Part shown: positions 8,313 through 8,345 of the stretch, piece by piece
Position numbering within the stretch: the stretch's first letter is position 1
Layout of the letters: every line of letters starts with the position of its first letter
DNA from: a virus
Lineage: Duplodnaviria; Heunggongvirae; Uroviricota; Caudoviricetes
DNA length: 9,608 bases
Direction: 5' to 3' (one strand)
Virus record (IMG/VR): IMGVR_UViG_2645727905_000011
Notes under the pieces: generated by a model
What the model was told of the DNA's origin: nothing
Databases searched by the model: none
What the model saw: only the letters and a program-made list of their open reading frames with translations
Program-made: the position numbers and the translations under genes

Positions 8313-8345
8313 TTGCGTGTAATTGCGGAGACTTTGCGATGTACT
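8313..8345 (+). promoter_or_regulatory. pI-like promoter region with a cII-type TTGC-N6-TTGC activator site
   Basis: TTGC at 8313-8316 and 8323-8326 separated by 6 nt, immediately upstream of and overlapping the xis start, as in lambda pI. Confidence 0.55.

Follow-up and report, generated by a model that had tools for sequence, protein, structure and literature searches.

The TTGC-N6-TTGC direct repeat lying just ahead of xis in this viral DNA very probably belongs to a textbook pI promoter that has been orphaned, its activator gene having been lost by a 4.2-kb deletion in a decaying E. coli prophage. The whole stretch of DNA analyzed (the window) has a length of 9,608 nt, and the repeat is present on its + strand at 8313-8326 as TTGCGTGTAATTGC. 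The ATG of xis (8339) is located 12 nt past the end of the repeat, and the repeat, xis and int are all on the + strand. The features of the window on which the argument is built are collected in Table 1.

Table 1. Positions of the principal features in the window, with the strand and the evidence for each.
Feature	Position	Strand	Evidence
Second CII site TTGCGAGCACTTGC, antisense within Q (paQ position)	324-337	+	Identical to lambda site
Q antiterminator gene, lambda type	1-624	-	Pfam Antiterm 4e-58; ~97% DNA identity to lambda Q
Replication gene O remnant, C-terminal 114 aa only	3538-3882	-	tblastn O residues 160-273, 100%; annotated partial pseudogene
Deletion junction, 5-bp microhomology CGTTA	3879-3883		Colinearity break against L007; base-level junction
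kil, first surviving gene of the former pL operon, abutting the junction	3883-4035	+	Annotation; junction alignment
Terminator-like hairpin (8-bp stem, 6 GC pairs) and T-run	8289-8312	+	Terminator scan
CII-binding direct repeat TTGC-N6-TTGC of pI	8313-8326	+	Exact pattern match; lambda identity; phage annotations
pI promoter region	8313-8352	+	Every base as in lambda
xis (excisionase), intact	8339-8557	+	72 aa, 96% identical to lambda Xis; annotated excisionase
int (tyrosine integrase, HK022/mEp235 type), intact	8535-9608	+	357 aa

By itself the pattern is uninformative. Two copies of bare TTGC-N6-TTGC were found in the window against an expectation of 0.89, and two or more were present in 46 of 200 shuffled sequences; in the 49.6-kb locus there were five against 4.8 expected. 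The bare motif was rejected as a statistical signal, since these counts are close to those of chance in both window and locus. The site becomes meaningful because it is orthologous to that of lambda. All the bases of the 14-mer at 8313-8326 are identical to those of lambda 29091-29104 (complementary strand), and a nearly base-for-base alignment with lambda 28.86-29.17 kb begins at ~8250 and continues through xis to its end. Within this, the ~95 bp of ~8250-8345 comprise the hairpin, the T-run, both TTGC repeats and the start of xis, and the sole mismatch is at 8306 (C in place of the T of lambda), inside the hairpin. This confirms the motif as the orthologue of the CII site of lambda pI. The first-pass annotation had placed the motif where lambda CII activates the int promoter, and this is borne out by the single mismatch over ~95 bp and by a spacing to xis that is the same as in lambda.

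Lambda CII binds the TTGCN6TTGC repeat around the -35 element of PRE, PI and PaQ (PMC4651098), and exactly these three promoters are activated by CII (PMC5300877). TTGC-N6-TTGC is the target common to the CII proteins of lambda and P22 (PMC2629481). PI sits in xis, and the transcription of int from PI is independent of xis (PMC2951348). The sequence of the window would place the -35 of pI between the TTGC repeats and the -10 so that it overlaps the xis ATG, and by analogy with lambda the transcript would start inside xis. Note that the lambda records NC_001416 and J02459 hold no annotation of the pI start point. No promoter-like site was scored in a sigma-70 consensus promoter scan of 7700-8700, in keeping with a promoter that needs an activator, and the pI sequence is that of wild-type lambda. 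The direct repeat, the location on the int strand where xis begins and the orthology of a lambda-type pI are all found; what is missing is a cognate cII, of which there was no sign in the element or, with five alleles, elsewhere in the chromosome.

The corresponding site has been annotated in a number of related phages. Both mEp235 and HK629 have this 14-mer as far from xis as it is here, labeled ‘putative coliphage lambda cII binding site (TTGCnnnnnnTTGC)’ in mEp235 and ‘putative coliphage lambda cII binding site’ in HK629. HK630 has a feature named ‘cII’ at the corresponding spot. At the corresponding position of HK620 a promoter is given as ‘phage integration’, together with a binding site for the cII protein. 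In Sf6 ‘pI’ lies inside ‘bsq2; boundary sequence’, which begins at the pI site.

The repeat is preceded directly by a terminator-like hairpin, the T-run of which continues into the first TTGC. The records of HK140 and phage L give terminators at the segments that match this hairpin. The hairpin and its T-run mark a mosaic joint, with upstream sequence common to P22-like and Stx phages, the homology to which ends at 8311-8319, and a lambda/HK022-type xis downstream. The segment 8248-8319 is kept at 94-99% in P22, Sf6, HK620, CUS-3, Kapi1 and many Stx phages, and the phages that have it carry different recombination modules downstream. Four terminator-like hairpins are found on the + strand of 7718-8308, compared to 1.0 expected in shuffled sequences. 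Read-through into xis and int would be unlikely because pL and N have probably been deleted (see below) and these hairpins would block it.

The window contains just one other match to TTGC-N6-TTGC, i.e. TTGCGAGCACTTGC within Q. Lambda Q likewise has a lone match, at 44173-44186 (complementary strand), and the two are identical. In lambda the pRE site is located at 38369-38382, inside cII, and in the remnant it has been lost along with cII. Judged by sequence, the remnant would retain two of the three CII-dependent promoters, pI and paQ, both of them orphaned.

The window is 100% identical to 2962714-2972321 (reverse strand) of E. coli Z1323HEC0067, NZ_CP148378.1, where the phage DNA is located between ibs/yegL and mdtA (locus L001, i.e. 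the window plus 20-kb flanks). The P′ arm is found beside ibs (L001 11930-12100) and the P arm directly after int (L001 29609-29700), both matching the arms of mEp235 attP. Because these mark the two ends, the remnant is bounded at ~17.8 kb. From attL the order of genes is espJ, two hypothetical genes, nleG, tail-fiber genes, lom, tail-tip′, holin′ and three small genes, followed by Q, ninH, rusA, ybcO′, ydfO′, yfdN (PerC family), dam, a LexA DNA-binding-domain gene, a second rusA and a fragment of P. The remainder, up to attR, consists of the O fragment, kil, erf, an HNH endonuclease gene, ssb, abc2, small ORFs, an LprI-family gene, xis and int. In the left arm, L001 12348-14481 and 16915-18139 cover the genes for two T3SS effectors, espJ and nleG, and the abutting tail-tip′ and holin′. 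For unassigned ORFs the PHROG matches were to families of unknown function or to unrelated families. The full architecture is present in 2 of 5426 complete E. coli genomes.

The integrase is 97% identical to that of mEp235 and 76% identical to that of lambda, and the catalytic residues R212, K235, H308, R311, H333 and Y342 are all conserved. Residue 234 (window 9234-9236), which adjoins the catalytic Lys235, is Gly in place of the Ser of lambda and mEp235. Int, Xis, attL and attR have each been kept intact, so that the integrase, excisionase and att sites of a satellite are at hand. The intact state of int, xis and both att sites suggests that the decay is relatively recent; it is compatible with this, and may also reflect some retained use.

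The element is integrated between ibs and mdtA, although its integrase is of the HK022 type and the related A25 prophage adjoins torS. The att core (the CCTTATTnAAGG region) is unlike the core of mEp235 attP. To judge from these sequences, a variant or secondary attachment site may have been used.

No cI, cro, cII or N gene is annotated by PGAP in the element, although in related prophages PGAP gives the name ‘CII family’ to some of the proteins. A tblastn search of the element with lambda CII gave no match (self-control 4.5e-62), and no match was obtained there with lambda N, cI, cro or cIII. Across the phage collection the tblastn search with lambda CII revealed several divergent allele families, and five cII alleles were used, i.e. 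those of lambda, HK620, MS16-3, 2B8 and 24B. With these five, tblastn against the whole att-bounded element returned nothing at E<0.9. A five-allele profile applied to the six-frame ORFs of the element gave a best E of 0.018 (10 bits), compared to 2.5e-48 for the intact relative. The E=0.018 match maps into the HNH endonuclease ORF at 4998-5465 and was rejected as noise. Two proteins were considered as stand-ins for CII, the PerC-family YfdN (1616-2110) and the LexA DNA-binding-domain protein (2760-3086, 108 aa). Both were rejected on the same grounds, i.e. no homology to CII and nothing that would indicate binding to the TTGC repeat.

The first-pass annotation had stated that the window has no cII, and in this it is upheld by annotation, tblastn and profile together. 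A cII elsewhere in the element, which it had named as a way in which it might be refuted, was looked for across the att-bounded element and not found. With a promoter of wild-type lambda sequence and no cII, its further contention that expression of Int needs CII in trans probably holds.

The route by which cII was lost can be read from a comparison with an intact relative, prophage L007 of E. coli MS 16-3, which has the canonical gene order Q-nin-P-O-cII-cro-cI-...-ral-...-kil-erf. Window 2-1355 corresponds to L007 1501-2854, 3402-3883 to L007 6868-7349 (the 5′ end of P and the 3′ part of O) and 3879-5000 to L007 11509-12630 (kil and erf). The junction between the last two reads CCCCCGTTA followed by TGCGCAATG, and each of the parental sequences contains CGTTA. 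The ~4.2-kb deletion has taken the 5′ part of O, cII, cro, cI, several small genes, ral, a DUF2528 gene and a cIII-like ORF; to judge by synteny, the loss would have extended to pL and N. When the proteins of the deleted L007 interval were compared with the element, no match was found except for Kil and for residues 160-273 of O. At the junction the start codon of kil (+ strand) directly abuts the 3′ part of O (- strand), and the native upstream region of kil is gone. From its junction sequence, this is to all appearance a typical microhomology-mediated deletion. cII is missing because of a single deletion scar, and not by design.

The decay is not confined to this region. P is reduced to a short fragment, and in a second large deletion a partial tail-tip (J-like) gene has been brought directly against a partial holin gene. 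From the gene order, the interval lost would be that of the remaining lysis, terminase, head and tail genes and of a lambda-type cos. No lambda cos was found in the element with up to one mismatch allowed. Compared to intact relatives, the tally is seven partial pseudogenes and two large deletions. The element is flanked by att sites and has lost essential modules, i.e. it is a defective (cryptic) lambdoid prophage.

Other parts of the remnant differ from L007 in another manner. A foreign block of ~2 kb of nin-type genes, in inverted orientation, occupies window 1356-3401 in place of ~4 kb of L007; it contains ydfO′, the yfdN/PerC-family activator gene, a dam methylase gene, the gene for the LexA-domain-only protein and the second rusA. 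Its orientation is opposite to that of the flanking Q-ninH-rusA-ybcO′ and P′-O′ fragments, and it may have arisen by inversion or by recombination between prophages. A self-comparison revealed no DNA similarity between the two copies of rusA. The HNH endonuclease gene at 4998-5465 lies between erf and ssb; it is missing in L007 and present in the A25 prophage, and looks like a mobile homing-type insertion.

The prophage of E. coli strain A25 (L013) shows what the module is like when complete. Its kil-to-int module is 98.1-98.6% identical to that of the window, with the same pI and paQ 14-mers, and it is annotated with cII-family, cro-like, cI and N genes and has complete O and P. The module therefore normally travels with cII, and the window is a decayed derivative of it.

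A co-resident lambdoid prophage had been suggested in the first-pass annotation as a donor of CII, and the search of the host gives no encouragement to this. A strain-specific anchor (window 1000-1700) was searched with and without the five cII alleles, and the places matched at the DNA level were counted. In the NZ_CP148378.1 chromosome there were four places with the alleles and four without, i.e. no extra match, and in a sibling strain seven with and seven without, in counts that divergent alleles, a cII within ~1.6 kb of an anchor-like piece and plasmid copies could escape. Thus cII is apparently absent from the chromosome too.

We consider that the following sequence of events best explains these observations. 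The CII site of pI would have been inherited with a xis-int module of lambda/HK022 type. In a phage that is still functional, CII is expressed from the pR operon, binds the TTGC repeats flanking a weak -35 and recruits RNA polymerase, and the transcript begins inside xis, generating Int without Xis. Through one illegitimate-recombination deletion of ~4.2 kb the start codon of kil then came to lie against the 3′ part of O, and pI and paQ were left as orphaned cis-elements. Both would be intact because the remnant is young, and not because they are in use. Should CII be provided by a superinfecting lambdoid phage, pI would most likely fire, and by analogy with lambda the product would be an HK022-type Int only, of no consequence for the remnant. 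It is established lambda biology that excision between attL and attR needs Xis. Since pI yields no Xis, CII supplied in trans would give an Int with nothing to do.

It could be argued that the orphan sites are under selection for cross-talk, such that an incoming CII turns on the Int of the remnant, together with the antisense transcription of Q, and so helps or hinders phages of the same att specificity. In favor of this, neither of the CII sites that survive has been mutated, Int is intact, and the target is one shared by the CII of lambda and P22 (PMC2629481). Against this, there is no signal of constraint. At the divergence of 1.4-1.9% from A25 the chance that 14 bp would remain unchanged is ~0.8, so the conservation of the site is uninformative on selection, and the exact architecture occurs in just 2 of the 5426 genomes. 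We know of no phenotype for such cross-talk, and regard selection of this kind as very improbable.

In a related proposal, orphaned pI, with paQ, might serve as a trans-responsive module, such that the HK022-type Int of the remnant is turned on by the CII of a lambdoid phage, either superinfecting or induced. We think this decidedly improbable. If it were true, the remnant Int could alter the fate of phages with a matching att, for example by integration into the att sites of the remnant, or could aid recombination among the prophages of a strain that carries T3SS effectors.

The first-pass annotation had seen in the remnant a satellite-like passenger, using the CII of a helper, co-resident or superinfecting, for the expression of Int and for integration. 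An intact pI in an element without cII, together with intact Int, Xis, attL and attR, would be in keeping with this. For transfer by a helper, a satellite needs a packaging signal (cos or pac) or capsid-hijacking genes, and as a rule it also has a module for replication. Neither of the first two was found here, lambda cos being the one packaging signal searched for, and there is no terminase and no capsid or tail module, with holin′ fused to J′. Nor does the element have a replication module of its own, O being limited to residues 160-273 and P to a fragment. Because the packaging and replication modules are gone there is no stage of transfer that would require integration. Moreover, the loss of cII is the scar of a microhomology deletion, a near-identical module is found in the intact A25 prophage in the company of cII, and none of the five cII alleles was matched at other places in the chromosome. 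Finally, Int made from pI without Xis cannot mobilize an integrated element (PMC2951348). The satellite reading is thus most improbable and is set aside. That the motif is a chance occurrence unrelated to CII, for which the count of the bare pattern in the window might be cited, has virtually no likelihood, being refuted by the alignment of the 14-mer and its flanks, near-identical to lambda pI at the same position relative to xis, and by the other match, which is the orthologue of the site at the paQ position in lambda Q.

What remains is a classical lambda pI CII operator, already known as such and annotated in related phages, and its orphaning is a by-product of decay. The result matters mainly for correct annotation. 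It also provides a worked example, in that where an orphan activator site is found in a prophage, a deletion scar should be looked for before dependence on a helper is invoked. In pathogen genomics, the remnant with its espJ and nleG may be excisable if Int and Xis are both supplied.

The closest comparison is with pI of lambda itself. The TTGCGTGTAATTGC repeat, its spacing to the xis ATG and the first ~15 codons of xis are identical, and there is one mismatch in the hairpin and T-run; the organization of overlapping xis and int is also shared. The remnant differs from lambda in having no cII, pRE, cro or cI and, by synteny, probably no N or pL, and in an Int of the HK022/mEp235 type in an element that sits between ibs and mdtA rather than at the attB of lambda. 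The CII site has the same position relative to xis as in mEp235, but mEp235 is a complete sequenced phage. Both mEp235 and the A25 prophage have an attachment site of HK022 type, while the att core flanking the remnant is different.

E. coli is well known to carry lambdoid prophages that are cryptic or defective, e.g. DLP12, Rac and Qin. Like these, the remnant is flanked by att sites and has internal deletions and pseudogenes, with the immunity, replication and morphogenesis functions lost, and like them it has kept scattered functional genes, regulatory relics and cargo (here EspJ and NleG). It differs from them in being a separate element at a separate site, in which int, xis, attL and attR have all survived intact.
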